A stretch of DNA of 64,000 nucleotides, from contig CM114271.1 of assembly GCA_050084515.1 (NCBI GenBank), positions 1,922,001-1,986,000 on the forward strand. The letters run 5' to 3'. Below are positions 779 through 36,484 of the stretch, piece by piece. The notes beneath the pieces were generated by a model that searched no databases, was not told the DNA's origin, and saw only the letters and a list, made by a program, of their open reading frames with translations. This DNA comes from Blasia pusilla. Taxonomy: Eukaryota. The position numbers and the translations under genes are program-made. Positions within the stretch are counted from its first letter, which is position 1. Every line of letters starts with the position of its first letter.

Positions 779-1359
779 CAAAGAGAGAATGAGAGAAAGA
801 GAGAGCTTCATGGGGGAGCTCGCTGGTCACTCGATATTTTTGTAGGATGGGGACCGTGTTCCCCATCCAACGGCTCATGGGAATGCTCATGGGAGCAAGG
901 GTTGCTTGGATTGTTCTTTGCATTTGCCGATTTTTTGTGTGGAAGAGTGGCGCGCGGAAGCGCTGCCCAATTTCTGATAGGGATTGAGTATGGGGGCGGG
1001 TTGCCCCATGCCGGTGCTTTCGGGAGCACCATGTCGCTTTCTGATTTGTATTTTTACAGGTTTTACATTTTTGTTGGGAGGAATCAACGCGAAAGCGCTG
1101 CCGAATTTTGTGTAGGAGAAAGAGACATTGGGCTTTACAACAATCCCTTTCAGTTTTTACTGGAATGTCTGATTGTAAATATTTTTTGATGTTGGCGTAG
1201 ATCGTAAAGTTGTGCACGCTGTGCAACAAACTATGTGCAATTTGGAGTTACGAGCAAAATGTTATGATCAATCTTGCAAAACTACCATTGCTAGGCGATT
1301 TTTAGGGTTAAATTGTGCAAACCCTAAACCAGCCGCCACCGCCGCCGTCGCCGTCATAG

Positions 1360-1475
1360 TCAACGGTCAACCATCACCAGCGATGGTCAACCATCACCAC
1401 CAATGGTCAACCATCACCTTCACCATTCGTCCGTCACCATCAATGGTCAACCGTCACCATCAATGGTCCACCGTC
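1360..1475 (+). repeat. Short tandem repeats (CAAYGGTCAACCRTCACC-like) in the El-1 leader
   Basis: About 4-5 imperfect units. A reduced version lies on the minus strand in El-3 near 42350-42420. Confidence 0.7.
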
Positions 1476-2454
1476 CGTTATCCACCCTTGGTTGCCATTG
1501 CCGCCGTTACGGAGTGGAGGGTCTTCCACAACGTTCGTTGATTATCGGACTTGCGTCGCCATCACGTACTTTGTTTTGGCAGCCACCATCATCAACCTGT
1601 GATGGCATATGACCTCCTATTATAGTGTTTGAGTTTTGATTTCATGCTGCTATATTGTGATTGGTAGCCGCTCAACGACGATCGAGTACCGTGCCGTGAC
1701 GCCCGTAGCTGCAACGCGTCGCCGATTGCCGCGCCGTGCCGCTCGTGGCCGCATTGCACCATCTTGATCGTGGAGCCACTCCGGCATTGTGGAGCAGAGT
1801 GTGGGTTTATTGTTGATTGAGGAGGGTATGCCGCCGAGTGCCGCATCCCATCATCGATGGCCGTGCCGTTCGTAGTCGTTTCGTGCCGCCTGCAACGCCG
1901 CATCGTTCCGCTGGAACCGCACTGTCTATCGAGGAGTTTTGAGCAACATCAGCATGGGAGGAGCATGACTTGCTGATTGGAGGAGTTGTCTCCACGACCG
2001 AGTTGGGGTTGAGATTTGCAGTTGCTGAAGAGCGATATTGATATGTGTTCAGGTTACCCATTATGGTCCTTTACCCTGCACGTGTGAGGGATTATGGGAT
2101 TTGGGTAGTTTATTTGGGGATATTGGTTGTGTGGATGCTGAGAGCATCATTTATGTATGTGGTTTATGGGACATACACCTGTGTGGGATATCTTGAGTTG
2201 AGGGTAGGTTATCGATGAAATGATAACCTGGTCGATTTTCCCCACCACGCCGCTTATTCCCGCACGTTACATGTCTCGGGGAGGGAGAGTGTAGATCGAG
2301 TGCCGCATGTTTGAGATGAGTGATTGAGGGATTACTCACGAGGCAAGAGTGATCGGGTGAGAAGGGCACGAGGGTCATCACGACGTCTGTTGGGGACTTT
2401 GAGAGGCGAGGTGGTGAACCCGAGAGTAGCTCTAGAGGTTTTACGCGGAGTGGC

Positions 2455-4370
2455 GTGAGGTTCCGAGGGTCTTCACTTCAGGGACCACCTCGACCTCCTT
2501 CTGTGTCATCGTCAGACAAGGGAGAGGGTGTAGACGAGTTTTTGAGCACATCGCCACACATTGTGAGTGGTCCTACTAGTTGGGTGTACGAGATGGATGA
2601 CCGGGGTAGAGGACTACGTAGGTTTTCAGGTGCAGTAGGTACGATTGAGTTCCACGATTTCATAGCAGAGTTAAGGAGTTGGTGCGACTCTCAGAGGGCC
2701 AAGAACTCTAGAGAGTTCAACCCATTTACATCATGGAATGCTATGTTCCAGCATTTAGAGGGGGCACCCATGGACGATTACCATGAGTTTTCCCACAGAT
2801 ATGCCCACAAGATTGAGGCATGGCAACTCTACTACGACCCACACTATGTGTCGTGGGCGGAGCCGTTCCCAGATGAGGAGGAGGAGTTAGGAGAGGCTAC
2901 TTCCTCTTCCACTAGTGATGTTTTAGGAGGGATCACTCGCACTGGAGCAATTGCACCGTCTTGTCGGGTTCGTCCCAGGTTCAACCCGTGGTTGAGTTCT
3001 TTGCTGAGTTGAGGGCGAGCTACTAGGAGGTACGGAAGGAGAAGTTGCGGAGCATCCACAACTTCCAGAGGCGCCCGGGTGAGAGTTTACGTGAGGCTTA
3101 CACTCGCTTGCGCCGGTTGATCAACGTCACTCAGGGGATGATAGAGGCTCAGGCTATCCAGTCATGGTACGCGATGCTGGACCAGACCCTACGGCCACGA
3201 GTGCGGGAGGGGGTGCTTTTTATGAACACCTCCCCTACGTTGAGAGATGTTTTTAGGACCACCAAGAACATTGAGCGCAATATGGCAGAGGAGAGCGTAG
3301 CCACCATGGGTTCTGGGCCAGAGCACTCGCGATTGGCTGCACCACCTGTGCAACAATGTGGACTCCGAGATAGGTCAACTGTGGCACCACGAGCTCAGGG
3401 AGGATACGGGGAGCCGTGGCACAGAGACCTGCGCCTTCATATGCGGCTCAACAGCAGCCGCCTACTATTACTTGTTGGTCATGTGGTGGAGCCCATCATC
3501 AGCGCCATTGCACTCGTCAGGGTCATGGACGTGTGCCTCAGCATGAAGGAGGAGATGGTGCTGCACCAGGAGGTTATCAGTGTGACTATTGTCAGAGGTA
3601 TGGTCATACACGCGCAAGGTATTTCAGTTTACATCCTGAGTTACATCCGGACTAAGGGCCAGAGAGGGCACCAGAGTGAGTAGCCGGTCCGGGTGGGCCT
3701 AGAGATTGTGCACGGAGTGGTCCGTTGGGACGAGGAGCTGGAGTTGCCCGGACGGGGGTGGTGGAGCTGCCCGTGGAGGAGGTAGAGTACCACCACCTAG
3801 ACGCGCCGAGGGAGACGCCGGACGTGAGGCTGGGATGGCTGCTCAGATACAGCAGCTACAGGAGCAGATTGCCACTATGGCATTGAGGTTACCTGATGCA
3901 GGATCCGTGGCATCGACATCATATGGAGCAGCCAGAGATCTGGAGGATCTGGTTGGATGTCTTGGGTTGCCCAGATGGAGGCCGCCGGAGTTTGACGCCA
4001 GCGTGGAGCACGCAGAGTTGGATCCATGGGGAAGCCAGAAAACAGACTAGGCTTCCTCAGTCTTTCACGTTGTTCGAAGCGATGAGGACCCCATTGATGG
4101 GTCCTCATCAAAGTTCCTTGAGAGTTGGTGATGTTGTTGGTGTGTAGGCACGGAGGGCGATGGGAGAAGCGAGTGCGACGACTCCTATTGTTGATGCTCA
4201 AGAGGGGCATGTGTCGAGCACATTGTTGGGGGTGGCCACCATTGTGTACCGCACTCCTTTATTTTTTGCTTCCGATGTTATACGCCTGCCAAGGCTTTTT
4301 GGCTGGCCGCTTCACTATGTGAGCGCGGAGTTGGAGTTCCTACATCACGTTCAGAGGTGATTGTGGATTA
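2455..4370 (+). pseudogene. El-1 gag (frameshifted) with two zinc knuckles
   Basis: ORF pieces 2455-3012, 3045-3683 and 3416-3655 are homologous to El-2/El-3 gag pieces (GTIEFHDFIAE / GTIELEDFMQE; RPGESLREAYTRLRRLI). Knuckles CWSCGGAHHQRHC and CDYCQRYGHTRAR(Y). Start codon not resolved. Confidence 0.8.
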
Positions 4371-4371
4371 G

Positions 4372-4935
4372 GTGATGGACCTGCCCTTGGAGCGGATGCT
4401 TAGACCGTCCACGTTAGATTCATGGCAGGCTGCGGCTGCTAGGATGTCGGAGATGCCCGCCAGACCCACGATAGAGCGTGCCATGGCTTCTCCCGGTGTT
4501 GTGTTGCTGGATAACCAAGGAGAGGTCTTCCAATTGGTGAGTCTTAAAGGTAGAGCTTTTAGTCTGCAACGCGTCTTGTTGGATTCAAGAGCGCAACCCC
4601 TGATGTTGGGGAAACCGTCATTCAGAGGATTGGGCTTGATGAGAGCCGATGTGGAGCGTTGTCCATTCCGGATATAGACATCCTTGGGTGGAGCAAGTAC
4701 CACACAATATATCACCCGACAAGAGGTTGTGGTGAGGATTCGCCCGGGACATCCTACAGATGAGTCCATGGTGCGCGCCAAGGCGATAGTGACTGATGCA
4801 GAGTCCTACGACGTCGTGGTTGGTGGAGTAGTGTTATACCCAATGGGGTTTGCCCTGGATTATTGGGAGGAGTCAACATCCTACAGACCAGGATGGCAGT
4901 CAGGTGATGGGTGCCTTAGTTCATTACCCGTTTGA
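4372..4935 (+). pseudogene. El-1 aspartic protease domain
   Basis: RVLLDSRAQPLMLG (El-3 VLLDLGAQPL; consensus LLDSGA) and downstream YDVVVGG, typical of retropepsins. Confidence 0.8.
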
Positions 4936-5292
4936 TTCACAGGTGCAGTGATCGAGCAACGACCAGGAGAGATGGCGACCTTAGCAGCATTTAGCAGTGC
5001 CATCACTTGGCTTAGTGATTTGATTGAGGGACATGTCCATGCAGAGGATACTCCCGTTCCTGACATTTCTATGGAGAGGAGTGTTATGGTAGCTGCATCA
5101 TTCCGTGGAGGAGAGGTGCCGTTGTGGGGCTCGACTAAGGAGCTTCGACGATTGGCAGATGAGCACATGCAGACCGCGTGGAGCGAGGCGTTTGCACCGG
5201 AGCGTGATGGGTCTGAGGAACACAAGGTAGCAGGGAGTGCTACGATGACACCCTTGGATACCACATCCATTGTGTAGTGTACCCCGGAGGAG

Positions 5293-6245
5293 GGTATTCG
5301 AGTGTTAGATCTCTTTGGAGGGATTAGCACCGGGTTAGCTGCTGTTTTGCCGGCAAGAGTGCGAGTACAACAGTACCTGTATGTGGAGAGTGATGATGTT
5401 GCAAGGCGCGTCTCACTACGACATGTGGCGCAGTTACACCTACGTTTTCCCGACTTATTTTCTGCATCCGTAGTATAGGGGTACGAGAGTTCCCTACCAA
5501 GGGATATTTCGTTGTTGGGAACGCAGGACTTAGAGCGGGTAGGGACCATTGATTTGGTCATTTCCGGTTGGCCATGTCAGGGCCAATCGAGTGTTGGAAG
5601 AGGTAGCGGGTTGCCTCACACTCGGTCCAGGTTGTTTTGGGAGATGTTGAGGGTCTTACGGCAGTTGCAGGAGCACCAGTCTCGTTCTCCAGCCTACATT
5701 CTAGAGAACGAGACTGTGCCGATCTTAGGAGACTCCAGATCACGGGTGGTGATGAGTGCTCATCAAGTGCGTGCCTAGATCGGCCCAGTAGTGTTCTTGG
5801 ATGCGGCGAGTGTAGGTTCTAGAGCCCATTGCCCACGTCTATGGTGGACCAACTTGGTGTCCCATGCGGTGTTACGGAGGACGTATGCGAGAGTGGAGCG
5901 CCCCTCCCATTTGTTAGTGGATTCCATTCTAGATCCAGGTTGTGGATCACAAGTAGTGAGGCACGATGATCGACCACCACTGACTATGGTCAATAGGGTA
6001 GGCAGGCCGCGGGCAGCCTTTCCCACGTTTGTGAGTTTTCCCGCTTCCTATGCATACAAGGAGGCCGGTCCTGGCTTGGTTTGGGATGACCAAGTTTAGA
6101 GGTTGGTGGAGCCCAACGCCAAAGAGAGAGAGCAGGAGTGACACCCTCACAGGAGTGATGGCAGTCCCGTCAGTATCAGAGGCATCACGATGCCATGTCT
6201 TGGGTCAGGCGATGGACCTGAACTGCTTGACATGGATCCTCAGCT
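5293..6245 (+). pseudogene. El-1 DNMT3-like cytosine-5 DNA methyltransferase domain
   Basis: Motif I IRVLDLFGGISTG, motif II YLYVESD, motif IV DLVISGWPCQG, motif VI YILENE, motif VIII LDAASVGSRAHCPRLWWTNL, motif X VLGQAMD. Same reading frame as the upstream protease; contains in-frame stops and a frameshift near 6130. Confidence 0.92.
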
Positions 6246-6589
6246 TGGGAGTGGCTGAGCAGCGTCGTATGAGATCGCGACAGATCACAGCGGTTGCGTT
6301 GGTGAGCCCCATGCCTACCGAGATGGTGGAGGCAGTGGCTGAGGGCGAGACCCGAGGAGATCTATGCACCAGGGGAGATCGGGAGAGACACCCTTGTACT
6401 TCTTGGGATATTTTGCATGTACGCCAGGAGATGATAGCCACAACATCGAGCCTGGTTTCGGGCACTGCACGTGGAGGAGATTAGAGTTTGCAATTGGCTG
6501 TAGGAGAGCGGCTCAGTGTTGTTGTTCGAGACGGGGTTGCACCATAGCAACCACCGATACCCGCGTCGGAGAGTCCTACCGTAGTCACG

Positions 6590-8040
6590 ATGGAGACTTG
6601 GGAGCAAGATATGGGCCCTAAGTTGACAGGAGGAGAGCGGCGCCGAATACATCAGTTCCTCAAGAGTTATAAGAGCTGCTTTGTATTTAGCATGGAGGAT
6701 TTGGGGACGCTGAAGGGATCGGGGATCCACATTGAGTTGTCGAGTGATACGCCGATCTTCCGACGACCCTACAGGTACAGTGATATGGAGAGGGCTCTCA
6801 TTCAGAGTAGGAGCCAGGACTTGGTCTGAGCAGGACTAGTGGAGATGTCGCATGGGGAGTATGCATCTGCCATTGTGATGCCCGCCAAGAAGGATGTGCA
6901 TGGCAACTAGATGGATAGGCGGATGTGTGGGGATTACCGACCTATCAATCGTGATTTAAGTCCGATAGGTATGCCATGCCCACCCCGAGGAGATCTTTGA
7001 TGCGATTGGTCACGCAAAGGTCTTGATTCATTGATTTTGAGCGGAGACCATCAACTGCCTATCAGATTGGAGGACAGGCAGAAGACGGCATTTTGGGGCA
7101 TCGATCCTCATGGGAAGGATTGTTTGTACTAGTGGCGGTTCTTACCATTTGTGTTAAAGAACGCCCCGGCTGAGTTTCAGAGGGTCATGGATAGGATCTT
7201 GGCTGGTCTGGATTTTCCTAGGTGTTATATTGATGACACCGTAGTCTTTAGCGCCACGGTTGAGGAGCATGAGCGACATCTAGAGGAGGTGTTTCGACGA
7301 TTGCAATTACATGGGCTGAAGCTACATCTAGGCAAGTGCAAGTTCTTCTGCGACCAGATTGAGTACTTGGGTCATACGATATACCCAGGGAGCCTTGGTG
7401 TTCAGCAGACAAAGATATAGGCTATCTCACGCATTCCACGCCCTACCAATGTGAGCCGTGTTCGCGCATTCATGGGATTGGCGAACTTCTATCGGCGATC
7501 GTCAAGGGATTCAATTTGATTATGGCCGTTGACCTTGCGACCAAGGTGGATCACGAGTGGCACTAGGGGATGAGCGGGAGCGAGCATTTCGATTGCTCAG
7601 GACGGAGTTGGCGTCCGCGCCCATCTTGAGGAGACCGATCACGGGCGTCCTTTCCGATTGCACCACAGATTGGAGCATGTTGGGGCTTGGGCGGTGCTCA
7701 CCCAAAGATGATGATGAGGGTAGAGAGTTCGTGGTGGCTTACGCTAGCCGCTCGAACAATGTTGCAAAGGTGAAGTACAGCTCGTATGAGGGTGAGTGCT
7801 TCGCTACAGTGTGGGCTGTCGCGCATTTTAGGTGTTACTTATTCGGAAACCCCGTTACCATCATCACTGATCATCAACCACTGAAGTGGTTGATGGAGTC
7901 CGATAAGCTTACAGGGAAGCTTGCGAGATGGGCTCTGTTGTTGCAGGAGTATGATTTTCACGTGGTACATAGACCTGGGATGCTCAACAAGGATGCAGAT
8001 GGGTTGAGTCGTAACCCATGCCCGAGTCAGCGAGATGCGA
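6590..8040 (+). pseudogene. El-1 reverse transcriptase and RNase H
   Basis: PIFRRPYRYS, RMCGDYRPIN, LKNAPAEFQRVMD, CYIDD, KCKFF...YLGH; RNase H TDWSMLGLG...YSSYEGEC...TDHQPL...DADGLSR. Confidence 0.93.
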
Positions 8041-8199
8041 ATGGAGCTCGATGGCATGGAGAGAGTGATGAGGAGTCGGTGCTAGGATGGCACGTGTCTG
8101 CCTATTTAGGCATGTTGGCTATGGAGAGCCAGAGTGTGGAGACTTTGATGGCGAGGTCTAGCGGAGAGTCCTTGGATCCTGAGGCAAGTGAGGACACGA

Positions 8200-9221
8200 C
8201 AAGTGGCCGAGATATTCATGATGATGGAGTAGTCTTGGAGTACCTTCGTACTGGTAGCGTTGCGAGCACCGTGGATGCTAGAGAGCGGGATCGGATCCTA
8301 CAGCGGGCTAGACGGTTCCGTTGGGAGGGGACACATGTTTTGAGGGTTTGGGAGGATGGCAGAGTACGCATAGTGCCGCATCCTTCACAGAGAGCACGAC
8401 TAGTGCAGCATGCCCACGAGGAGTTGGGTCACTTTGGGGTGAAGTGGACGTACAGCTTGCTCGAGATTCAGTATTGGTGGCGAGGCATGCAGACTGACGT
8501 TCAGCAGTTTGTTGCCAGGTGCATGGTGTGTGATCGGATCCGAACATCGTTCAATGCTCCAACTCCACAGTTGCATCCATTACCGATCATGGGCTTAGGG
8601 TATAGATGGAGTTTGGATTTTGCACGACCTTTGCCCTTTGACGGAGCGTCACAGTCGTTATGTGTTGGTGATGATCGAGCACTTCTCGAAGTGTATCGAG
8701 TTGGTTGCATTGCCTGACAAAGCAAGTGAGGGAGTAGCTTATGCCTTCCTTGACAGAGTGCTGAGTCATTATGGCGCACCGGCTGAGGTGTTGACAGACC
8801 ACGGTACCAAGTTTCGCGCTGAGTTCCACGCCTTGTGTGATCAGGCGCTCATCGATCATCGTACGACTTCGCGAGATCATCTTGAGGCGGATGGATTAGC
8901 GGAGAGAGTTGTGCAGACGGTGAAGAGGTGTTTACGCAAGTATGGCTTGCAAAGAGGTCACCTAGGAGATTGGGACCTTCAGTTGCCCTGATTAGCGATG
9001 GGATGCAGATTCAGCAGGTAGGTATCCTTAGCGTCTTTTTCACCGTACTTGGTACTTTATGGCCGAGAGCCAGATTTACCTGCCGCCATTCGTCGAGATT
9101 CTGGTGCGGTGCTCGACCTTGATGACCCAGATGTATGGATGTGAGTATGTTCTCAGAGGGCTGAGTTGTTTTGGAGAGTGATGCCCATGGCGTTCGAGAA
9201 CTTGGCGATTGCGTAGCATCG
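8200..9221 (+). pseudogene. El-1 integrase (HHCC and DDE core), interrupted by El-2
   Basis: HAHEELGHFG...CMVC; WSLDF, VLTDHG, GLAERVVQTVK. Reading resumes at 18029 (AIA*HR|DTLRYATIQGG). Confidence 0.92.
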
Positions 9222-9969
9222 TGTCGTGCGAATCCACATCGTCATACAACATACATCGCTGACATACCATACTCACATACATAGATAACATAGATGAGAG
9301 TATCCACAAACACAAGTGTACCACAACTGAAATCCGTGAAAGACCTAGTGTCATAAAACACGTATACAATCACATACAATCGAGCCAAACCCACTCCACG
9401 ATGGAAGAATCTAGGTCAAAGCTTGCGGGAAACACCATAGCCAAGAGCTCTACTCACTACCAAGGCTAACTCCCAACGCAACAGGCTCAACTCAAAGAAC
9501 TGACTGTTCTTTGAGGGCACTCCACCTTATATCCTCCAACCTAAGAGCGATGGGAAAGTCACCCCAACTGAGTAACCCCCAACCCTATGTATGGAACCGC
9601 ATCTCTACCAAGCCACTACGGTCCTACATAAGGAATGGCCTCTACTAGCACACCATACTCTACGACATAATCTGTATGGTCATGACAAATGTGTCGTGCT
9701 TGAATCCACATCCTCATACAACATACATCGACATACCATACTCACATACATACATAACATAGATGAGAGTATCCACAAACACAAGTGTACCACAACTCGC
9801 CCCCCTAACTGGCGGTTAGGTCCCTCTAACTCCCAGGTAGCCCTATACATCTACTACATGCTATACACCTTCTTGGGTGCCCGAATCAGAAGGCCGGGTG
9901 CTAGGTTGCCCCATCGTTAGTCGCACATCTGTAATCCATATCATGCAAAGATCAAGTCATCTACCTCTC

Positions 9970-12900
9970 CTAAGTACATCGAGGACAAACCCACCTTCCA
10001 CTAGGAACAACATCCATACGTGGAGTCAAACACATCATGTGCCAACCCTAGAACACCGATCACACACCAACATACGGGTTGCGTTACCAGCAGATCCACA
10101 CAACATGCACCTCAAGCTAGCACGTATCATGGCTAAGCTTGGGTCAACAGTACCATCCACATTTGGAAGATGACATGGCGCACAATTACGCACATGGTCC
10201 TTCCAAACAACTCCATCACGACCCTCCAACATGAGAACTCCAGAAGCTAACACCTCGCAAGACTCGTAAAATAGTGCGGCCTGCCGTCACATCCAACGTT
10301 GTCGGTGCAATCTGCTGCAAATAGACATAGTCCCCCACATGGAACCTACGAATCGATGGTTGATAACCTCCACCTTGAATGGTTGCATACCGCAACGTAT
10401 CCCTGTGTTGAGCAATGGCAAGATTCTCAAAGGTCGTTGGCATAACTCTCGAAAGAAAGAGCTCCGCCGGCGAGAACACACCCTCATCCAAATCTGGGTC
10501 ATCAAGGTTCACCACCTCACTAGACTCCCGACAAATTCTTTCTTGGCAAGTCTGGATCTTGGCCATATAACAGAAAATAAGGTGAGAAGGAAGCCAAGGA
10601 TGCTTGGCGACTGAACCTATACCCCATGGCTAACCATGGCAATCGAACATCCAGTCTCAAGATGCCCCTTCAGAGGCCATACTTGCGCAATGCCCTCTTC
10701 ACCGCCTCGAACCACACGCTCAGCCAAACCATCCGCCTTGGATGATCTCGAGATGTGGTCCGATGATCAATCAACGCCTTGTCACACAAGACCGAAACTC
10801 ACGAAACTCAGACCGGTCGGTCAAGACACTTCAGCTGGTGCACCAAAATGACTAAGCACTCTATCTAGAAACGCATACGCCGTTCCCTCACTTGCCTTGT
10901 CCGGTAATGCCACCAACTCAATCCACTTGGAGAAGTGCTCCACCATCACCAACACATATCAATGATGTCGTACAGTGAACGGTAACGGTCCCGCAAAGTC
11001 CACACTCCAACGGTAACCCAACCCCATAATAGGCAAGGGGTGTAATTGTGGTGTAGGGGCATTAAATGATGCCCTCACCCGGTCACAAACCATACAACAT
11101 GACACCAACTGCTGCATGCCACGCCATCAATATCGGCCAAGGAGTAAGCTATACGACGCTTTACCCCAAAATGTCCCAACTCCTCATGGGCATGTCGCAC
11201 AATGCCTCTCTCTTGAGCCAAATGTGGCACTACTCGTACTCTACCATCCTCCCACACGCGGAGAATATGTGTTCCCTCCAATCGATACCTCTTAGCACGT
11301 TGAAGAACACGGTCTCGCTCCTTGGCACTCACTATGCCTGGCACCCTACTGGTCCATAGGAACTCCAACACCAACGCATCATCATGAATATCACGCTGAT
11401 CCGTACTACCATCTCCAACCTTAGGATCTGAAGGGTGGCCATCTACCCTCTGACTAGAGTAAGATATCATGTGGTCCTCCATACTAGAGTCCACCCCTTA
11501 CCAACATAAAAAGGCGGATGCATGCCAACCTGGCACCATCTCCTCATCAACCTCGCCATGCCATCTAGCCCCAGTTGTATCCTGTTGGCTAGTACATGGG
11601 TTCCTACTCAACCCATCAGCATCAAGGTTGGCAACTCTAGGTCTATGTACCACCTGGAAGTCATACTCCTGTAAGATAAGAGCCCACCGTGCAAGCTTCC
11701 CTGTAAGCTTGTCCGACTCCATCAACCACTTGAGCGGTTGGTGATCAGTAACAAGGGTAAAGTGGGTGCCAAACAAGTAACACCTAAAGTGTGCCACAAC
11801 CCACACTACTGCCAAGCACTCTCCCTCATATGAACTATAGCGCGACTCCGCTGCATTATTCGAACGACTTGCATAGGCCACCACAAACTCCATGTGCTCA
11901 TCATCATGTTGTGTCAACACCGCTCCAAGTCCCAACCTACTCCAATCGTGTGTAATCTGAAATGGGCGCCCTCGATAGGTCTCCTCAAGATAGGCGCGCC
12001 ACCAATCGGGCCTTAAGCTCCACAAAAGCTCTCTCGATCATCTCCCAAAGTGCCACTCTTGATCTGATTTCAGCAATTGGTTCAAAGGCTTTGCCATAGC
12101 ACTAAATCCTTTCACATACTTCCGATAGTAGTTCGCCAATCCCATGAATGCTCGAACTCTACTCACATCTACCGGACGTGGAATAAGTGCAATAGCCTCC
12201 ACCTTTGCTTGCTGAACTCCCAAACCACCTGGATAGATCACATGACCCAAGTACTCAACATCCTCATGGAAGAACTTACACTTTCCTGGATGCAAACGTA
12301 GACCATGAGCTTTCAACCGCTCAAACACCATATGCAAATGTATCTGATGCTCCTCCACCGTGTTACTGAACACCAAGATATCATCAATGTAACACCGAAC
12401 AAAATCCAACCCTTCTAGGATCTTGTCCATCACTCTTTGAAACTCGGCAGGTGCATTCTTCAACCCAAAGGGTAAGAATTTCCACTAGTACAAACAATCC
12501 TTGCCATGAGAGTTGACACCCCACGAATCTTTGTCTTGGCCTTGTCACTCTCCGAATCGGCAATTGATGGTATCTGCCCGAAGATCCAAAGTATCTGAAA
12601 ATCTTTGCCTGTACCACCACATCAAAGATCTCTCAGGTGTAGGCATGGCATACCTATCGGCCTTGGTTTGCCGATTGATAGGGACGGTAATCTCCACACA
12701 TCCGCCTATCCGTGTAGTTGCCATGCATATCCTTTTTAGCAAGCATGACGGTGGCCGATGCATACTCTCCATGCGACAACTCCACTAATCCAGCCTCCAA
12801 AAGGTCCAACGTCCTACTCTGAATCAAGTCCCTCTCCATATCACTATATCGGTAGGGACGACGGAAGATTGGCGTATCACTAGCCAAATCAATCCGTATA

Positions 12901-15900
12901 CCGAGTCCAACCAGAGAACCCAACTCCTTCATGCTAAAGGCAAAACAACTCCTATAAGCATGTAGGAGGCGTGTCAGCGTCGTTTCTCACCTCCCGTAAG
13001 CTTGGGCCCAAGTAATGGCTCCCAAGTCTCCTCCTTTGGCACACTAGAGGGAGAGGGCGATGCCATTGGTCGCTACTCATAACCCCCTCACAAGATGGTA
13101 CACCCTTAGCTACACCATCATCTGAGCAAATAACTCCTCCACCAGCATGAGCAACCAACTCCACATGCCCAGCCATTACATCCCATTTACTCCAAGGATG
13201 CAAAATACTACTCTCCTCGCCCCCAGCCGATGCCTCTACCGTCCCGGTAGCCATCGAGCTCATTACAAGGGGTGGAAGACCCTGAGACATAGTCCGAAGT
13301 CGATTTGCTCGACCATACCAAGACTCAAAATCCAAGTCAAACAATTCAGGTCCATGGCCTGACCCAACACATGACGTCGTGAAGCCTCGGAAATAGAAGC
13401 AACGGGCATTTGTCACACCAATAGCAAATCCCATCGCGACGCTCTCTCGATCAAGTGTTAGGCTCCACCAAGCCGCCGCACATAAGAATCCCATACAAGC
13501 CCCGGACCACCTTCCCTGTAGGCATGTGACGAGGGAAAACTCACAAATGTGGGTAGTGCCATCCTAGGCTGGCCCACACGGTTCACCACTGCCATGGGTG
13601 ACCGATCAATAACCCTCACCACTTGAGAAAGTCGCCCAAGATATCAAGATACTATCCTTTGAAGGCGAGGATCCCAGACCGCATCATATGCTCGACGTAG
13701 AACCTCCCTAGGCAACAAGTTTGTCCACCACAAGCGTGGGCGATGTGCACGCTGAGCCAACTGCGCATTTGCATCCAACAACACCACCTGGTCCAATCCA
13801 AGACCGCACCTCATGAACACTCGCCATCATCCGGGTCCGAGTGTCACCCAACAATGGAACATTCTCCAAAATGTAAGCTAGAGCACGTGCCTGATGAACC
13901 TGAAGATGTCGTAACACCCGTAACATCTCCCAAAACAATCGAGACCTAGGGTCATGTAATCCCTCACCACGACCAGACGTGTATGACCCTGACATGGCCA
14001 TCCAGCAATCACCAAATCCACAGGACCAACCCTCTCAAGGTCCTGCGCCCCCAACAATGCAATGTGTGATGGTAAAGCACGCTGGTACCCACGAATAGCT
14101 GATGGCGACAACAACTCGGGATATCTCGCATCAATCGACCAATATGTCGGGATGAGACTCTCTGGGCCGTCTCATCTCGCTCCACATACACGTATCTCCG
14201 CACAGGAATACCGGCCTGCAACACTACAGCCAAACCAGTGCTAATCCCACCAAAGAGATCTAACACACAAATGCCCTCCGACGGATACTGCCATACAATG
14301 GGTGTAGTATCCAAAGGGATAACTAATGGACCAGAAGTAGGAGTCCGTGGGGCCTCCTCTTCCTCGTGAGGTATAATGACCTCACACCAAGCCTCTGCAC
14401 TAGGCGATCGCCTCTGCCGTAGTGCACCGCTGAACTCCAAAGTGGCACATCCAACGATGAGGATGCCACTGCTGCAAAAATAAGGACCTCCTCTACCTCC
14501 TCATGCGCAGGAGAATCCATAGCAGAAAAATTACCCTCCAAAAAGTCTCCTGGCCAAGTGACTACTCCACTAAAACCAGCCACAGATGCTAACATTGTTG
14601 GGAAGACCCTCTGGTCGAGCCCCGAAATAAATCTCACAGAACTTGGCTCATACGTCCATCCCTGATGCCAACCAGGTGTAAGACGCTGTCTCGATCCGGT
14701 AATCCATCCGAAAACCCATCGGTACAACATCGCTCCTCCAACTAGTACATCATACGACTCGGCCGATGTGACTACCGCAGATACTCCCAACCGGGAGCTA
14801 TCAGTCGCATGATCTGGTCTCAACTGTACAGAAAAATTTTCCCGTGTCATGAATTGAGACCTATCATTGGCTCCTCCAAGTGATGTTTGAATCTGGAATG
14901 GGCAAGGCTCAAGCTCGACCTCCGAATACCCAAACCAATACATGCCGCCTTTCCCAACATCAAGGTTGGGCACCGAGTCTAACAAGACTCTATCTGGTCT
15001 ATACACTGTCTGTAGGACTCACCAATCGGAAGATCCCACCGGTTGTCCAACATACATACACCAGGTGTAAGCCTCTCACGATCAATGGTGGCCGGGTGGT
15101 AATGCATCCATCTTCGCCATTTCTTTGCTCGCTAAGTAGCATGGTACTCAATGCTACACGACATAGAGGGTCGCTCCACCGCAACATCCTCATCCACCTC
15201 AACACGTGTAGCAAGAACACCCCACGTTCACACAATGTGGTCGCTAGCTGAAATACTGAGCTAAGTCAACTCCTAAAGCCATCGGCTCCGTGGGCGAAAA
15301 CAATGGGGATCCCAACACTAAAGTTGCCATCCGCACATCTTGATCGATCTTGCATCCGTGTCTACTACACGCCGATGTAGATGCCTCGATCCCCAATGTC
15401 GGCTCAATAGGCTGCGAGGAACCATGGATGGAGTCCTAAGCACCTCGAGACAACAAGAATGATGGGAAGCCTAGCCTGCCTCCCAGCCTCACCCCTCTAT
15501 GGGTCCAACTCCACAGTAGCACCACGTGGCTCTGACGTTCGAGTGGCTCCTCTCATAAGTGCAGCTGATGCCTTAACCTGTGCTGCACTCGCCATATAAG
15601 AGAGATCATCCCCTCCATAAGAGGTGGAAGCTCCTACTCCCGAACCTGATCTATGCTGGATACCAGCCATAGTAGCCAACTTCTGCTCCAACTGCTCAAT
15701 CCTGGCAGCCATAGCTGACTCTGTCGTAGTGGTAGGGTTGCCACCGTAGGCTCTCCAACCACTGGTCCACCTCTACCACCTCGACCTCTCAGAGCTACTC
15801 CACCACGGCCGCGGCCTGATCTCAACTCTGGATGAAGATCAAAGCAACGCTCTCGAGGATGACCTGGTGTCCCGCAATGATCACACTGAGTTGGGGCCGA

Positions 15901-17069
15901 CTGAGACCCATCCTCCAAAGTCCGTCTCCCATCCTCTTGGGGACAAAACTTCCTAACATGATCACCTCCACATGTCCAACATGACTGTCCTTGCTGCGGG
16001 GCAGCAAATGAAGGCAATGGTCTCTGCGCAAGTGTCCCTCTAGGACTTGACTAAGGTCGTGTGTACCCCCCACGACTCCCACTACTACTACCACCACCAC
16101 TACTACGAGACTGTGAGGTGGGCGGTTGAACACGAGAAGTAGTAGTTGTATCCCTACTGAATGCGGATGTCACCACTCTCTCCTTCACCATGTTAAGCTC
16201 AATCTTCTCAGATAGAGCAAACACATGGGTCAATGTGGGTGAATCATCACTCATAAGAGTAGCATCACGTACCCTACGGGCGCAAATCTCTGTCCAAGAT
16301 CCCATACCAAAAGCTGGATCGCTCGATCCTCAATCACACCCTGGGTAATGAAATCAGCGTCGATACGAGTGTATGCCTCACGAAGACTCTCACCGTCTTT
16401 CGCTCAAATTCTGAAGATTCCTCAACTTTTCCGTCTTCACTCCCTGATAGTTCTTCTTCAACCTCTTGAAGAACTCTGCAATCGAGATGAACGATGGTGG
16501 GGCACTAGTACCTCCACTAGTACCCCCCTCCGGCCTCGCACTGCACCACTCAACGTCGGGCTGGCTAGCATAGTAGGAGCACTACTACCAATACCACCAT
16601 GGGTGATAGACACATAGCCTGGAGACCAATATTGTCTCCATGCCTCAATCTCAGCAACATGGTCCTTCCTAAACTCATGGTTATCATCCATGGGTGGTCC
16701 TTCCAAGTGCTGAAACAACCCCTTCCAAGCCAAGAAGGGTGTAAACAACGTGGCGTTCCGCAACATCTGCATATCACACCATGTATCAAACTCCTGCATG
16801 AAGTCCTCCAACTCAATGGTACCCACTACACCCGAGTATCGTCGTGGGCCCTTCATGGCCCCATATCCACCGTCCATGTCCCAAATCAATGGAGCTGCAA
16901 CACTCGATAACAACGTAGAAGACTCGGTGTTTGGAACACCCTCGTCCTCCTCTTCATCAACCGTCGGAAGTGGAAAAGGTAGCCGATACCTAAATCCACT
17001 CCGTGTGAAACCACCATTGTCCGCACCACGGTCCCCAACCAGACCACTCGACAGCTCCGTGATGACCAA
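9970..17069 (-). pseudogene. El-2 Gag-PR-DNMT-RT-RH-INT-PHD polyprotein (many frameshifts)
   Basis: Knuckles CWTCGGDHVRKFC and CDHCGTPGHPRERC; RVLLDS; DNMT motifs; CYIDDILV; YSSYEGECLAV; HAHEELGHFG; C-terminal CMLC...CDRC...WVCPRC. Confidence 0.9.
13330..14278 (-). pseudogene. El-2 DNMT3-like methyltransferase domain
   Basis: ICVLDLFGGISTG, YVYVERDE, GPVDLVIAGWPCQGH, RSRLFWEMLRVL, YILENVPLLGD, AHRPRLWWTNL, VLGQAMD. Confidence 0.92.
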
Positions 17070-18028
17070 CGCCGATGCCGCACCACCACCAAATTACCCA
17101 AGTGATGTCGATGTCGCTCTATTATTGTAGCTCTCCTAGCTATGGGTGTAGGCAACCTAACCTCTCATCACCACAAGAAGCCTCCCATGGTCTACTGGTC
17201 ATCACTCCAGCCTCACTATCAGTAGCACACATGAGTAACACTACTCTGGAAATCAGCGTCAACCCTAACAATGGGCGCGCAAGCAAGAAGCACGATGGAG
17301 GGGATCCAAACACATGAAGTCCAACGACAACCCTCCAATCGCAAATGGAAATCAAGGTAACACAATCCACCAAACGTGGTGCCCCCCTGAATCCACAAAA
17401 CCCACCACACAATTCTAACGCAATAGCTACTCCGCCGCGGGTCGATGACGTACTAGTCGAACTTGCAGCACCTGAAAATATCACCTGCATGGAGAGGCTA
17501 CACCGTACTATGCGCTAGAGGTACATCAACCAAAAACCTGAGATGCATAAAGCGCCTAACACATCTCCGAACAGCACCAAATGAGCTACAACAGTGTGTA
17601 CACTGGCATAGTTAAGAACTCAACAGTTAAGCGTCCTCCAGGCAGAATAGCCCAAAGATGGGTGACCAGTTATGCAAAACTCAAATCCCAAATCCTGCAA
17701 AAATTACCTCACGCCCAAGCAAGCAAGCTTGCTTGCTTGCTCCTTGCTCCTTGCTCCTTACTCCGCCTCTCACGCCCACTCGCCCCGAGCTACCACGAGT
17801 TGCCTCGAAGCCTCGAAGCCTCAAAGAACTGACTGTTCTTTGAGGGCACTCCACCTTATATCCTCCAACCTAAGAGCGGGCCCTACTGGGAAAGTCACCC
17901 CCAACTGAGTAACCCCCAACCCTATGTATGGAACCGCATCTCTACCAAGCCACTACGGTCCTACATAAGGAATGGCCTCTACTAGCACACCATACTCTAC
18001 GACATAATCCGTATGGTCATGACAATCG

Positions 18029-18461
18029 GGATACGTTGAGGTATGCGACTATTCAGGGTGGTGGTTAACGACAAACTATCCGGAGGTTTCATTAGGGAGA
18101 TTATGTCTACTTGCAACAGACGGCACCGACGATGTTGGATGTGACTGTAGGGCGCACTATCTTGAGAGTACGTGACGTTTTGCCATCCGGTGTTCTCTTG
18201 CTGGAGGGACGCGATGGTATGGTATGGAAGGACCATGTGCGTAATTGTGCACCATGTCACCTTCCTAACATTGATGGTACATTGGATCCGAGCTTAGTAG
18301 TAGTTCCTACAGGCTTGTGTTGTATGTTGTGTGGTTATGCTCGTGGTGCGGTCACAATACTAGTCTATGATGGTTTTTCGAGAGGTTGGCATATGGCATG
18401 TCCGACGCCACCTCTCACTAGGGTTCCTTGGGGACGATGGATGTGTCCCAGATGTACATAG
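18029..18461 (+). pseudogene. El-1 integrase C-terminus with PHD finger
   Basis: CCMLCGY...VYDGFSRGWHMACPTPPLTRVPWGRWMCPRC. El-2 and El-3 retain CDxC, giving a C4HC3 PHD pattern. Confidence 0.88.
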
Positions 18462-18647
18462 AGGAGATACTAGGTAGGTTTCGATACTGACTTTTTCTCT
18501 GATATGGATGAGAGGAAGGCGACTAACAATGGGGCCACATGAGCACCCGACCTTCTTGCTCTTAGCGTCCGAGAGATGTATGTTATGGTAGGTAGGGATA
18601 GATGGCTATCTAGAGTTAGAGGGACCTAACCACCAGCTAGGGGGGCG

Positions 18648-18774
18648 ATTGGAGATATTTGGTACTTCTTGTCTCGTTTTTTGGATGCTATGAGTTAGCA
18701 TGGGATCGTGCGTGTTTGTGTGTGTGTTCGGTGACAGCGATGTATGTTGTGTAGCGATGTGTATGCGCACGACA
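18648..18774 (+). repeat. El-1 internal repeat B1 (ends GCACGACA), preceded by G-tract TAGGGGGGCG
   Basis: Matches B2 at 19116-19225 and El-3 B1/B2 on the minus strand. Confidence 0.9.
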
Positions 18775-18776
18775 GT

Positions 18777-19225
18777 TGTCACTTGGTTTATGATAGATCG
18801 GTGAGATCTAGTAGAGCGTCTTCAAGAGTAGTGGAAGACATGCCTAGGAGTTCGAGGATGACTTGGGAGAATATGTTACCATGGAGAGAGCTTGGGACAG
18901 GGGAGGGGTATATATCCCAAGGAGAGAGAGCTTGAGAGCTCATTCTCTCTTTGTTGAACCTCTTGGCATGAGGCGGCGGAGCTATGATCCCTTGCCTTGT
19001 GAGTGTAACCCAAGCCTCTCATTAGGAGAGTGGGTTTGGTTTGATATGAGAGAGAGTGCACACCTTTGAGAGCTATGGTGTGAGATTGTGTAGAGAGAGA
19101 TTGGATCTTACTTTAATTGGAAATATTTGGTACTTCTTGTTTCGTTGTTTGGATGCCATGAGTTATCATGGGATCGTGCGTATTTGTGTGTGTGTTCGGT
19201 GACAGCGATGTATATGCGCACGACA
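18777..19225 (+). repeat. El-1 A2+B2 terminal unit (TGTC...GACA)
   Basis: A2 (18777-19115) matches A1 apart from an internal deletion; B2 (19116-19225) matches B1. Confidence 0.9.
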
Positions 19226-30560: not shown

Positions 30561-31872
30561 GCGCAAGAGTTTGAAAGTTATTACAACAAGGACATTGTGT
30601 CTTAAATAGGAGAAGGTTTATAACCATCCTTTGTTAGTCATAGTTAAGTTAAAATCTATGACATGAAGCGCATAAATGGGAAAGAATCAACAAAAAAGAG
30701 AAAAGGACAAGATATATGAGATAAAGATGAGAGTAGGGTCATAAGTTGGTGAAAAGTAAGGATAAAGTTGAGATAAAGATGAGGGTGGGATCATAGGTTG
30801 GTGAAAAAGAAGATAAGGATGAGGGTGGAGAATATGATGTTGAGACATTAAAGTCCAAAGGAGATCCTCTCATGCTATGAGAGTAGGACACGTGGCATAA
30901 GGATAGGTAGAGGTTGTCGTGCGCATACACATCGTTACACAACATATATCGCTATCACTGAACACACACACACAAACATGCACGATTCCATGCTAACTCA
31001 TGGCATCCAAACAACGAGACAAGAAGTACCAAAATATCTCCAATAAAATAAGATCCAATCTCTCTGACAACACCATAGTTCTCACATGTGTGCACTCTCA
31101 CATGTCTCTCTTAATGTCAAACCAAACCCACGTACTCTCCTAATAAGAGGCTTGGATTACTCTTACAAGGTAATGGACCATAGCTCCGATGCCTCGTGCC
31201 AAGAGATTCAACAAAGAGAGAATGAGCTCTCAAGCTCTCTCTCCTTGAGGTATACCCTTCCCTCCCCCAAGCTCTCTGCATGGTAACCTATGCTCCCAAG
31301 TCACCTCCTTGGCTCTTGACCTGATGTAGGAGGTCAAAAGCCACTTACCAAAAATAGAAATTCGACCATATATTCAAAATGGTACTTACCTAGAATAGTA
31401 AGTTCTTAAAAATAGCTCCAAATGAGCCGAAACGAAGGGGAAACCTACTCTCTCAGGTTTCTCGGGGCCTCAGCAGGTCATCCTTGACCTCTTAAGCCTA
31501 TCCTCCACTACTCGAGAAGACGCTCTACTAGATCTCATCGATCTATTCTAAAAGATGTGACAGTTATCGTGCGCATACACATCGCTACAAAACATACATC
31601 GTTGTCACCGAAAACACACACCAACACGCACAATCCCATGCTAACTCATGGCATCCAAACAACGAGACAAGAAGTACCAAAATATCTCCAATCGCCCCCC
31701 TAGGTGGTGGTTAGGTCCCTCTAACTCCCAAATAGCCATCTATCCCTACCTACCATGACATACATCTCTTGGACGATAAGAGCAAGAAGGCCGAGTGCTC
31801 ATATGGCCCCATCGTTAGTCGCCTTCTTGTCATCCATATCATAGACAAAAGTCAGAATGTAGAACTACCTAT

Positions 31873-34437
31873 GCTATGTACGTATGGGACACATCCATCA
31901 TCCCTGAGGAACCCTAGTGAGAGGTGGTATCAAACATGCCATGTGCCATCCTCTCGAACATCCATCACAGACTAGCATAGTGGTAGCACCGCGGGTAGAA
32001 CCACACAACATACATTGCAAGCATGCAAGAACTATTGTTAAGCTCGGATCAACTGCATCTTCAATGTTTGGAAGGTGACACGGCACACAGTTACGCACAT
32101 GGTCCTTCCAAACCATACCATCGCGTCCTTCCAATAAGAGGACACCTGATGGCAAAACCTCACACACTCTCAAGATGGTGCGCCCTACAGTCACATATAA
32201 CGTCGTGGATGCCATCTATTGCAAGTAGACCTAGTCTCCCTGATGAAACCTCTAGATAGTAGTTTGATAATCACTCCCCCCGCGAATAGTCGCATACCTC
32301 AATGTATCCCGATGCTGCGCAATCGCCAAGTTCTCAAACGCCATACGCATCACTCTCCGAAATAATTCAGCCCTCTGAGAACATGCTCGCATCCATACAT
32401 CAAGGTCATCAAGCTTCAAGACCTCACCAACATCTCGAAGAATGGCTGCAAGTAAATTTGGCTCTCGGCCATACAAAAGTAAGTATGGTGTGAAAGACGC
32501 TAAGGATGTCTGCCTGCTGAATCTATATCCCATGGCCAACCACGGAAACTTGAGGTCCCAATCTCCTAGGTGACCTCTCTGCAAGCCATACATACGTAGT
32601 CCTTTCCATCTACACAACCCGCTCCGCTAGTCCATCCGCCTCAGGATGATCCCGCGAAGTAGTGCGGTGGTCGATCAGTGCATGATCACACAAGGCATGA
32701 AACTCCCTGCAAAACTCTGTACCCAGGTCTGTCAACACCTAAGCTGGTGCGTCGTAATGACTCAACACTCAATCTAGGTAGGCATACACTACTCCCTCAC
32801 TGGCTTTGTCAGGAAATGCAACCAACTCTATCCACTTTGAGAAGTGCTCGACCATCACCAACACATAACGACTATGGTGCTCCGTCAAAGGCAAAGGTCT
32901 TGCAAAATCCAAACTCCATCTATCACGTAAACCCATGATCGGAAGTAGATGCAACTGTGGAGTCGGAGCATTGAACAATGCTTGGACTCGATCACACACC
33001 ATGCATGTGGCAACAAACTTTTGAACGTCACTTTGCATGCCTCGCCACCCATACTGAATCTGGAGCAAGCTGTATGTGTGCTTAACTCCAAAATGACCCA
33101 GTTCCTCGTGGGCATGATGCACGAAATGTGCTCTGTGCAGAGGATGTGGCACTATATGCACTCTACCATCCTTCCACACTCGCAACACATGTGTCCCCTC
33201 CCACCGGAAGTGTCTGGCTTGTTGTAGGATCCGATCCCTCTCTCTAGCAGCCACTGTGTTCGTGACGCTGCCAGTACGCAGGTACTCCAGGACCACTCCA
33301 TCGTCGTGAATGTCTCGACCACCGATCGTCTCCTCAGCGGCCTCTGGATCTAAGGACTCTACATCAGACCTCGCCATCAAAGTCTCAGCAATCTGGCTCT
33401 TCATAGCCAACAATCCCAAATAGGTTGACGCATGCTATCCTGACACCAACTCCTCACCACTCTTACCATGCCAACGAGCTCTAGTTGCATCTCGTTGACT
33501 CAGGCATGGGTTACGGCTCAAACCATCTGCATCTTGATTGAGCATCCCAGGTCTATGCACCATATGGAAGTCATACTCTTGCAATAAAAGAGCCCACCTC
33601 GCAAGCTTCCCTATAAGCTTGTTGGACTCCATCAACCACTTAAGTGGATGATGATCAGTAATGATGGTATAGGGATTTCTTAATAGATAACATCTGAAAC
33701 GTGCGACAACCCATACTGCAACCAAGCACTCACCCTCATATGAGCTATACTTTGCCTCTGCAATATTGTTCGAGCAACTAGCATAAGCCACCACGAACTC
33801 TCTAACATCATCATCATGCTGGGTGAGCACAGCTCCAAGCCCCAACATGCTCCAATCAGTATACAACTAGAAAGGAAGCCCCCTGATCGGTCTCCTCAAT
33901 ATGGGTGCGGATGTCAATCGGTCCTTGAGCAGCTAAAATGCTCTCTCCTGCTCACCCCAGTGCCACTCCTGATCCACCTTGGTCAGAAAGGTTAGCGGCT
34001 TTGCAATCGAACTGAAACCCTTGACGTACCGTTGATAGAAGTTTGCCAATCCAATGAGTGCACGAACTCGACTCACATCTCTAGGGCGTGAAATGCATGA
34101 AATAGCCTCTACCTTCGTTTGTTGCACACTAAGGCCCCCTAGCTATATCGTATGACCGAAGTACTCAATCTGGTCGTAGAAGAACTTGCACTTGCCTGGA
34201 TATAGCTTTAGCCCATGTAACTACAATGTCATCAATATAACACCTTGCAAAATCCAGACCTGCCAAGATCCTATCCATGACCCTTTGAAAATCAATCGGG
34301 GCGTTCTTTAACCCAAATGGTAAGAACCGCCATTGGTACAAGAAATCCTTCCTGTGAGGATCGATGCCCCAAAATGTTTCTTTTGCCTGTCCTCCAATCT
34401 GATAGGCAGCTGATGGTATCTGGCTCGAAGATCTAAC
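31873..34437 (-). pseudogene. El-3 RT (C-terminal part), RNase H, integrase, PHD
   Basis: LPFGLKNAP..CYIDD; YTDWSMLGLGAVL; HAHEELGHFG..CMVC; WSLDF; CMLC..CDGCSRGWHMAC. Confidence 0.9.
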
Positions 34438-36484
34438 GAAGTGAGGACCTTTGGCCATATATGTGATCCTTTGTATGAGTTGTTGAGAAAGAAGAAGAAG
34501 TTGACTTGGGAGAATAAGCAAAGACCAGCAATAATGCAGTTGAAGGAGGCATTAAAGTCGCCACCAGTTCTACGACAAATGAGCTACGAATGCAGAAGAC
34601 CTATTATCATCACAGTAGACACTAGCCCTATTGCTATCAGATGGGTAGTTGGTCAGGATGACGCGGAAGGAAGAAGATTTGCGACAAGGTTTGGAGCTCA
34701 TACACTCACGAAATGACAAAGGAGGTACCCTCAAGTAAAGAGGGAGCTTTGGGGAGTTGTGACTGCAATGAAAGCTGAGAAGGAGTATCTTATGGGAGCC
34801 TATGTGTTGCTTGAGGTTGATTGTCTACCTCTGTTAGGAATGAATGCAAATTGTACAACTCCAGATATAGCCATGTTACTTTGGATAGCCTACATTAGGT
34901 CTTTGAATCAACAATTGAGGCACATAGTTGGAAAAGAGAACTCAGTAGTTGACATGTTATCTAGAGCTAGATTTAGTCAAGAAGATTATATGGAGGCAGC
35001 TAAGATAGATGAGGATGATGCATACGTGTGGCAAGTGTCATCGCGAGAACAAGGTGACATAGAGGATGTTCTAACCTTCAAAGAGAATTTGTATGAGGAC
35101 AGGTTAAAATAAATTGGGCACTATTTAAGCACTCTGCAAAGAGAAAGAGGGTAGACTGATAAGTTCTTCATGGAGATTCGGCTTAAGGCGTATGGCTCTC
35201 TCCTACAAGATGGATATCTTTGGAAAAGGTCAAAGAGGAGAGGTGGAATGCCCTTGAGGGTGATGGATGAGAATGGGACAAAAATATAAGTGCTCAAAGA
35301 ATTCCACAATTCTTTATGGGCAGGACACAGAGGTACTTGGGCAACTTTCACCAAGATAAAAGAGAGATATTGGTGGAAAGGCCTGTCTAAGGATGTTGAG
35401 AGATATGTTGGGTCATGTGTTGAATGTCAATTTCAATAAAAAAATCAGGGTGAGAGATGGACTTAAAACCCACGTATCCTTTGTCTATTCATCATCAATG
35501 GGTTATAGATCTAGTAGCTATGCCACTAGGTCTTTGGGGAATGCGCTACTTGGTCCTAGCACGAGAAGAGTTGTCCAATTTTATAGAAGGGAAGGCTTTA
35601 CGAGCTAAAAAAACAAAGCCTATATGTCGTTTTATTCTAGAGGATATAGTTGCTCGATATGGGAGTGTTGGGAGAATCCGTGCAGATAGAGGAGAGTTGA
35701 ATGCAGAGGAAGCACGAGATTTCTTCAAGAGGTATGGAGTCCAACTGAGATTAACAACCTCAATGAATCCGGAGGCAAACGGCAAGAGCGAAAGGGGACA
35801 TCCGCCAATCATTCAAGCATTGGTGAAGGCGTGTGGAGAGTGTTATGCTGATTGGCCTAGATTGTTTCCATTTGCTTTATGGGTAGATAGAACCACTCAC
35901 AGCACCGTTACAGGGTTCATACCTACAGAGTTGATGACATGTCAAAAGCCGATAACGCCAACAGGAGGAGATATTCCCATTTGGATGGGTTTGTTGTGGG
36001 AAGACGGGCTCGATAGGGAAGAGCTCCTAGCACTTTGAATGCAACAGCTAGAGCTGTGGGAAGAAGATACTGCAGAAGCATTAGTCAAAATGAAGGAAGC
36101 AAGGTTGAAAAATAAGAATCGCTTCGACAAAACTCATCGACTTTGGAAGGAGCCTATAAGGGAAGGAGATTGGGTCTTGGTGCACGACAACAGCCTTGAT
36201 AACCAGTATAGTACAATTAAGAAGTTTGCATGTCGTTGGTTTGGTCCATACGTTGTAGTTTTTGCTTTTGACAATGCCACTTACAAACTACGTGAACTAG
36301 ATGGCACAATTCTCAAGCTGTCCATTGTAGGAAAAAGGGTCAAGATTTTTCGTAGACACGAGGGATTTCTTGATTTCGATTCAATGTGTCTAGAGGCATA
36401 AAAAAAATGAGTCTAAGTAAAATAGCAAGAAGTCTCGATATTTTCGGCATATATCGGAGGATGTGCAGGTTTGGAGGGGGTGAA

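Follow-up and report, generated by a model that had tools for sequence, protein, structure and literature searches.

What does a PHD finger do at the very end of a retrotransposon polyprotein that also encodes a DNA methyltransferase? The question is raised by a stretch of 64,000 nucleotides from Blasia pusilla (NCBI GenBank assembly GCA_050084515.1, contig CM114271.1, positions 1,922,001 to 1,986,000 of the forward strand), referred to below as the window. An earlier note, made from the sequence alone, had described three copies of a polyprotein there, each closed by a Cys4-His-Cys3 (C4HC3) motif, and had proposed that this finger steers integration. Retrotransposons that encode both a chromatin reader and a DNA methyltransferase illustrate how mobile DNA engages the silencing system of its host. 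The reading favored here, at a probability of roughly 55%, takes the feature for a decayed PHD finger, C-terminal in the integrase of an element of the Gypsy-DNMT3 kind, and holds that in live copies this finger would dock the intasome on histone H3 tails and thereby bias insertion.

The three copies belong to elements that are themselves interleaved with other mobile DNA. Element A, a Ty3/gypsy LTR element on the forward strand (263..19225), is interrupted by element B (9222..18024, reverse strand), a diverged relative with about 70% identity to A that is nested in the integrase gene of A in the opposite orientation. Element C (30913..43511, reverse strand) is of the same family as A, with 81-87% identity. 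Element limits were drawn from self-comparison (self-BLAST for A) and end sequences. All three elements have TG..CA ends, accompanied by the 4-bp target duplications CCAT (A) and ATCG (B) and by the flanks ATCT/ACCT (C); such ends and duplications are the mark of a DDE integrase. Self-comparison also uncovered split, DIRS-like terminal repeats in the order A1-coding-B1-A2-B2 in every element. They lie at 263-778 (A1), 18648-18745 (B1), 18776-19115 (A2, with an internal deletion) and from 19116 (B2) in element A; at 18025-17820 (A1), 9797-9691 (B1), 9688-9491 (A2) and 9328-9221 (B2) on the reverse strand in element B; and at 43512-42996 (A1), 31692-31563 (B1), 31562-31044 (A2) and 31044-30913 (B2) on the reverse strand in element C. 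DIRS-like split repeats are here combined with ends and target duplications of the DDE-integrase type, in A, B and C alike.

The coding order in element A is protease region, methyltransferase, reverse transcriptase (RT), RNase H, integrase, SH3-like domain and PHD finger. RT, RNase H, the integrase zinc-binding domain and the integrase core occupy 6569..9221 (+; Pfam RVT_1, RT_RNaseH, Integrase_H2C2 and rve; tblastn). On the far side of the nested element B, the integrase resumes from 9221 with its C-terminal SH3-like domain at 18024..18315 (+), located by tblastn with residues 888-1030 of P0029 and 464-608 of P0022 (database proteins are cited by such P numbers). Element C runs without a break over the site at which B entered A, and this allows the PHD finger at 18316 to be connected with the integrase core ending at 9221. 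A C-A-P-C-H-L-P motif, nearly invariant among liverwort and chlorophyte relatives, closes the SH3-like domain about 20 residues before the finger (window 18237-18260, +; residues 148-154 of P0002).

A foreign gypsy fragment inside element C (~34414-36398, +; RNase H, rve and a weak SH3_Tf2-1 match) lies between the methyltransferase and the RT of C and explains a gap in the alignment of A and C. Substitutions between A and C have a transition/transversion ratio of 1.86, with CpG observed/expected of 0.65-0.76; these values indicate normal decay with a slight loss of CpG and are uninformative on the PHD finger. The three elements are strongly asymmetric between strands, the coding strand having a GC skew of about +0.19 to +0.24 (G 31%, C 19-21%) at window positions 2001-8000, 10001-18000 and 38001-42000. 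That B lies nested within A, and another gypsy element within C, is compatible with insertion into repeat-rich chromatin; three events prove nothing.

The PHD domain is real at all three sites in the window and broken in each. In element A (18316..18461, +), the translated frame from 18102 ends in ...VVPTGLCCMLCGYARGAVTILVYDGFSRGWHMACPTPPLTRVPWGRWMCPRCT-stop, a PHD-type Cys4-His-Cys3 finger. Its C-terminus reads CMLCG...LVYDGFSRGWHMAC...PWGRWMCPRCT-stop, with the stop codon at 18459-18461, and Tyr and Phe replace the Cys residues of zinc ligands 3 and 4, respectively. The match to Pfam PF00628 covers profile positions 1-47 of 47 and reaches 18.9 bits (E=0.0016), below the gathering cut-off of 24 bits. 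In element B (~9970-10115, -), six-frame translation reveals a finger split by a frameshift with stops: one frame reads CMLCG...LVCDRCSRVGT-stop and another GWHMMC...PSGRWVCPRCT-stop, and the ORF that holds the first half (10038-10286, -) matched no Pfam family. In element C (~31873-32023, -), the C-terminus reads CMLCG...LVCDGCSRGWHMAC...PQG-stop-WMCPIRT-stop; the finger is complete as far as His-x2-Cys, an in-frame TGA follows, and the final Cys is replaced by Arg. Scored over its uninterrupted ORF alone, this copy matches PF00628 with 33.3 bits; when the stop is read as X, the score is 42.8 bits (E=5.2e-11). These Pfam scans covered the stop-free ORFs of the window and a few short read-throughs with X at stops. 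All three copies have a stop codon no more than two codons past the last ligand position, and in none of the three are the eight zinc ligands complete in C4HC3 order and spacing. The earlier description of a C4HC3 motif closing the polyprotein in every copy therefore stands as regards the domain, at all three places, while the motif as written is a composite that is intact nowhere. The PF00628 scan that had been suggested as a check succeeded for copy C and fell short for copy A and for the first half of copy B. The three elements of the window are pseudogenes and do nothing now.

With every window copy broken and copy A under the Pfam cut-off, the pattern might be a chance arrangement of cysteines, or a host-gene fragment that was captured and is foreign to the element. 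Relatives argue strongly against both. A search with the 121-residue ORF of element A found 94 proteins; Marchantia polymorpha supplied the best matches, and Calypogeia, Sphagnum and Pleodorina follow lower down. PF00628 is present in 85 of these 94 relatives, and the full C4HC3 spacing in 73; together with the three homologous copies, the former count makes the motif more than chance. The intact relatives, which come from liverworts (Marchantia and others), Sphagnum and chlorophyte algae, match PF00628 with 29-46 bits and keep all eight ligands, which are invariant in an alignment of 27 sequences whose mean column identity is 39%. Moreover, RT, RNase H, integrase and PHD finger follow one another in single intact ORFs (P0017 and P0029), so the finger is part of pol. 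Given the same placement in three homologous copies, these intact ORFs and hundreds of relatives, a chance motif and a captured host exon were both rejected, and we regard either as having next to no likelihood. The window elements are dead liverwort-type members of a large Gypsy-DNMT3 clade of green plants and green algae. Within the clade, copies have also entered gene annotation: P0002, P0005, P0015, P0018-P0020 and P0022 of Marchantia polymorpha are fragments of this retrotransposon family annotated as hypothetical 'PHD-type domain' genes, with P0022 combining pieces of protease, methyltransferase and integrase-PHD in a chimera. Such copies, of which Marchantia has many annotated in this way only, could confound gene counts of PHD proteins.

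The finger is not only part of pol but its last module. In liverwort and moss relatives it is terminal, with 1-14 residues behind it; the more distant chlorophyte-like relatives carry an extension of 30 to 450 residues beyond it. Some of these extensions resemble known domains below the Pfam cut-offs: that of P0081 gives a weak Tudor-type match (PF21743, E=8e-4), and those of P0078 (E=0.003) and P0046 (E=0.03) resemble the SAM-binding part of D12 adenine methyltransferase.

A neighboring decayed chromovirus (about 27892-30560, +), with protease, RT, a Tf2-1-type SH3 domain and a chromodomain, offers a comparison within the window. Its chromodomain (~30420-30551, +) was recovered with PF00385 (E=9.1e-8, 32.4 bits, with X at two stops), and SH3_Tf2-1 lies directly upstream (E=1.7e-14). 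Both parts of the earlier comparison were thus confirmed, namely that the neighbor has a chromodomain and that the PHD finger sits where chromoviruses carry theirs, after the SH3-like C-terminal domain of the integrase. Elements A, B and C gave no Pfam match to PF00385, and the finger occupies that position. As in chromoviruses, then, pol closes with an accessory chromatin-reader domain placed behind the SH3-like domain of the integrase. In contrast to them, elements A, B and C have a zinc-binding PHD finger as their reader, which makes these elements functional analogues of chromoviruses and not members. Chromodomain-directed integration is cited in PMC6673714 and 10.1101/2021.11.30.470311.

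The second chromatin-related domain of the polyprotein is the methyltransferase. In element A, a DNMT3-like cytosine-5 methyltransferase (5296..6298, +; Pfam PF00145, E=3.2e-9) lies between the protease region and the RT; its GWPCQG catalytic loop is present, and its frame carries stops and a frameshift. The corresponding regions of element B (13311..14281, -; weak PF00145 match, E=0.0045) and element C (37696..38490, -; PF00145, E=3.9e-9) were both found by tblastn. The DNMT region of P0082 matches element A with 38% identity (tblastn, E=8e-47). When the methyltransferase of A, with X at stops, was compared with solved structures (phmmer, PDB), the best matches were DNMT3A, DNMT3B and DNMT3C (E~3e-8), and the next family was the bacterial M.HaeIII (E 5e-3). 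The label 'DNMT3-like' given earlier to this writer was therefore apt.

Are reader and writer kept together beyond the window? A search with the methyltransferase alone (P0082 residues 690-1045, a query free of PHD sequence) found 184 proteins, of which 120 were listed. PF00628 is present in 103 of the 120 listed relatives, and the 17 without it are mostly short or truncated. Because these relatives were found by the methyltransferase alone, reader and writer are co-conserved, and the proposed pairing of the two within one element is borne out. A search with integrase plus PHD gave a still higher fraction (PF00628 in 119 of 120 listed matches), which is biased, the query having contained the finger. 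Domain orders were compiled across all 306 fetched proteins, a non-random sample in that every query came from the same clade. They include RT-RH-DNMT-IN-PHD (n=88), RT-RH-IN-PHD, starting at RT (n=31), and DNMT-RT-RH-IN-PHD, the order of the window (n=5). The PHD match comes after the integrase in all orders recovered except that of P0181 (PHD-RT-RH-DNMT-IN, where the recorded match precedes the RT), and this placement holds whether the methyltransferase lies before the RT or between RNase H and integrase.

The two domains differ in how well they are kept. Among the 120 listed relatives of the methyltransferase-only search, a regular expression for C4HC3 matched in 102, and the G[WF]PC[QTN] catalytic loop is kept in only 43; judged from these sequences, many copies with the methyltransferase fold are probably inactive. 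In Pleodorina P0054, for example, GWCWHD stands in place of the catalytic loop. The most useful new figure is this greater constancy of the reader relative to the writer in this clade; as a candidate for the core adaptation of the family, the reader is accordingly preferable to the writer.

The main rival reading, which co-conservation invites, has the finger serve the methyltransferase and not the integrase. As a split counterpart of an ADD-methyltransferase protein, it would bring or license the DNMT3-like enzyme at a given H3 state, and the new copy or its surroundings would become methylated. The ADD domain, a composite module of a GATA-like part and a PHD part beside the methyltransferase in one protein, reads the unmodified H3 tail. 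The nearest solved relatives of the finger read that tail too, and the joint presence of PHD and DNMT-like region in both domain orders suits such a service. However, the finger stands beside the methyltransferase in no order, even where the latter has moved, and is C-terminal to the integrase in all but P0181; from the counts of loop and C4HC3 pattern, it also outlives catalysis. No DNMT3 or ATRX ADD chain occurs among the best 60 of 85 solved-structure matches. Furthermore, the published domain list of Gypsy-7a_cRei, a Chlamydomonas element, includes a PHD without a methyltransferase (PMC9940879). Service to the methyltransferase is accordingly judged quite unlikely.

The earlier link to the ADD domain of animal DNMT3 survives only as an analogy. 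In both cases a PHD-type reader is associated with a DNMT3-type methyltransferase. Unlike the ADD domain, the reader here is a single plain PHD finger on the integrase, separated from the DNMT region by about 1,000 residues. Identity with an ADD domain was rejected, the finger being plain and single, carried on the integrase without adjoining the methyltransferase, and without an ADD chain in the same best 60 of 85 matches.

Which kind of PHD finger is it, then? P0002, an intact Marchantia relative, matches solved PHD fingers with E values of 1e-13 to 1e-7, among them those of PHF12, CHD4, KMT2C/D, KDM5A/B (PHD1), PHF21A/BHC80, DPF3, ATXR5, KAT6A, UHRF1 and AIRE. An AlphaFold model was built for P0002, as a relative of the window copies, with a 27-row alignment. 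Its mean pLDDT is poor overall (63), with 78-87 for the finger and a good SH3-like barrel. Foldseek placed the modeled finger on BHC80 (rmsd 1.0 A, 48% identity), DPF3b (0.5-1.0 A), ATXR5 (1.2 A) and BAZ2A 'in complex with unmodified H3K4 histone peptide' (1.1 A), and also on UHRF1 'with unmodified H3 N-terminal tail'. Taken as a unit, barrel and finger resemble the Tudor-PHD pairs in PHF1, MTF2 and UHRF1, with a poor overall fit (rmsd 12-13 A). Relative to the solved fingers of PHF21A/BHC80, DPF3b (PHD2), BAZ2A/B, UHRF1, ATXR5 and CHD4, the C4HC3 fold is the same (rmsd 0.5-1.4 A, 33-48% identity), and so is the signature CDxCxxx[WYF]HxxCLxPPLxxxPxGxWxCPxC. They differ in context: the solved fingers belong to cellular chromatin proteins, whereas that of the window belongs to a retrotransposon pol.

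Two features of the relatives bear on the likely ligand. Two residues ahead of the zinc-binding His, where H3K4me3 readers have their cage tryptophan, the 27-sequence alignment has a nearly invariant Gly. Among the matches listed there is no finger of the ING or BPTF type. Together these observations favor a reader of the unmodified H3 tail. In BHC80 and AIRE, acidic residues hold unmethylated K4; among the sequences of the 94-relative set, such residues are conserved neither ahead of the first Cys nor within the first loop, which makes the specificity of the finger a guess. Chromatin without H3K4 methylation is the likeliest target, since the nearest solved PHD fingers read the unmodified H3 tail, but we hold this tentatively, at somewhat less than even odds.

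The same residues can be turned against histone reading altogether. PHD fingers with non-histone ligands exist, and here the relatives display neither an evident aromatic cage nor conserved acidic K4-binding residues. The finger could bind another host protein or nucleic acid, or stabilize the integrase's C-terminal end, for example in nuclear entry or intasome assembly. By both sequence and fold, though, it groups with PHD fingers solved with H3 tails, and a Tudor-like module directly follows it in some chlorophyte relatives (PF21743, E=8e-4, below the cut-off). A role away from histones is therefore rated as unlikely.

Docking on the H3 tail, the reading preferred here, starts from points that are established: the domain is a PHD finger, it forms the final module of pol, intact relatives conserve it, it occurs together with the methyltransferase, and the elements show integrase-type insertion. 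In live copies, the finger would remain on the integrase and could dock the intasome on nucleosomes through the N-terminal tail of histone H3. Such tethering would bias the landing sites of new copies, much as the chromodomain does in chromoviruses. Steering of integration by histone state, as the earlier note had suggested, is plausible by this analogy. A more elaborate version would join PHD finger and DNMT3-like domain in one co-evolved system that reads, inserts and marks. The finger would dock the intasome on H3K4-unmethylated nucleosomes, and a co-packaged methyltransferase, or its dead scaffold descendant, would mark or shield the new copy; the pair would thus be a split, mobile counterpart of ADD-DNMT3, kept across chlorophytes and streptophytes despite the movement of the methyltransferase within pol. 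We consider this extended scheme distinctly improbable as a whole. The Marchantia copies would be a tractable plant system for PHD-directed integration.

Elements of this kind have precedents. de Mendoza et al. (2018; PMC5890265) described KnitGypsy-Dnmt3, a Klebsormidium Gypsy element with a DNMT3, as 'DIRS-like repeats with Gypsy domains'. As described there, it shares with all three window elements the Ty3/gypsy pol order RT-RNase H-integrase, a DDE integrase, a DNMT3-type methyltransferase in the polyprotein and A-coding-B-A-B repeats (legend of their Figure 4). The likeness concerns published layout and domains; the window relatives are liverwort-like, with best matches in Marchantia, and no protein named from Klebsormidium is among the matches listed in the A-fragment, methyltransferase or integrase-plus-PHD searches. 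The term 'PHD' is absent from the main text and three text supplements of PMC5890265; its Figure 4c may show one. The name 'streptophytes (Gypsy-DNMT3)' also appears in a 2026 preprint (10.64898/2026.05.21.726589).

PHD fingers in Gypsy elements have been reported independently. In Chlamydomonas, Gypsy-7a_cRei carries a PHD and inserts into intergenic sequence 2.6 times as often as expected, and targeting was suggested (Craig et al., 2022; PMC9940879). By its description, this element is, like those of the window, a green-lineage Gypsy LTR element with a PHD in Gag-Pol and 'LTR subparts'; its published domain list differs in lacking a methyltransferase and in naming the PHD before INT. PHDs are a common accessory domain of Chlamydomonas transposons according to PMC8557442. 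Across eukaryotes, PHD and Chromo readers recur with the RT and integrase domains of retrotransposons (Grau-Bove et al.; 10.1101/2021.11.30.470311), the example named being a cnidarian PYGO-like PHD; the passages of that survey on such fusions leave a pairing with DNMT3 unmentioned. Gypsy-DNMT3 elements, PHD-bearing Gypsy elements and the idea of targeting are thus all already published. An explicit pairing of PHD and DNMT3 in Gypsy-DNMT3 elements was not found in the searchable texts of the literature, figures lying outside that scope.

Outside the elements, the only clear cellular gene noticed in the window is that of a host TFIIB-like factor (56883-59936, +), with a TFIIB zinc ribbon (E=4.9e-18) and a weak TFIIB repeat about 2.8 kb downstream, a spacing that implies introns. 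Short dispersed repeats with 77-79% identity also occur in AT-rich stretches outside the elements, pairing 20586-20913 with 62885-63231 and 46043-46220 with 62839-62668.
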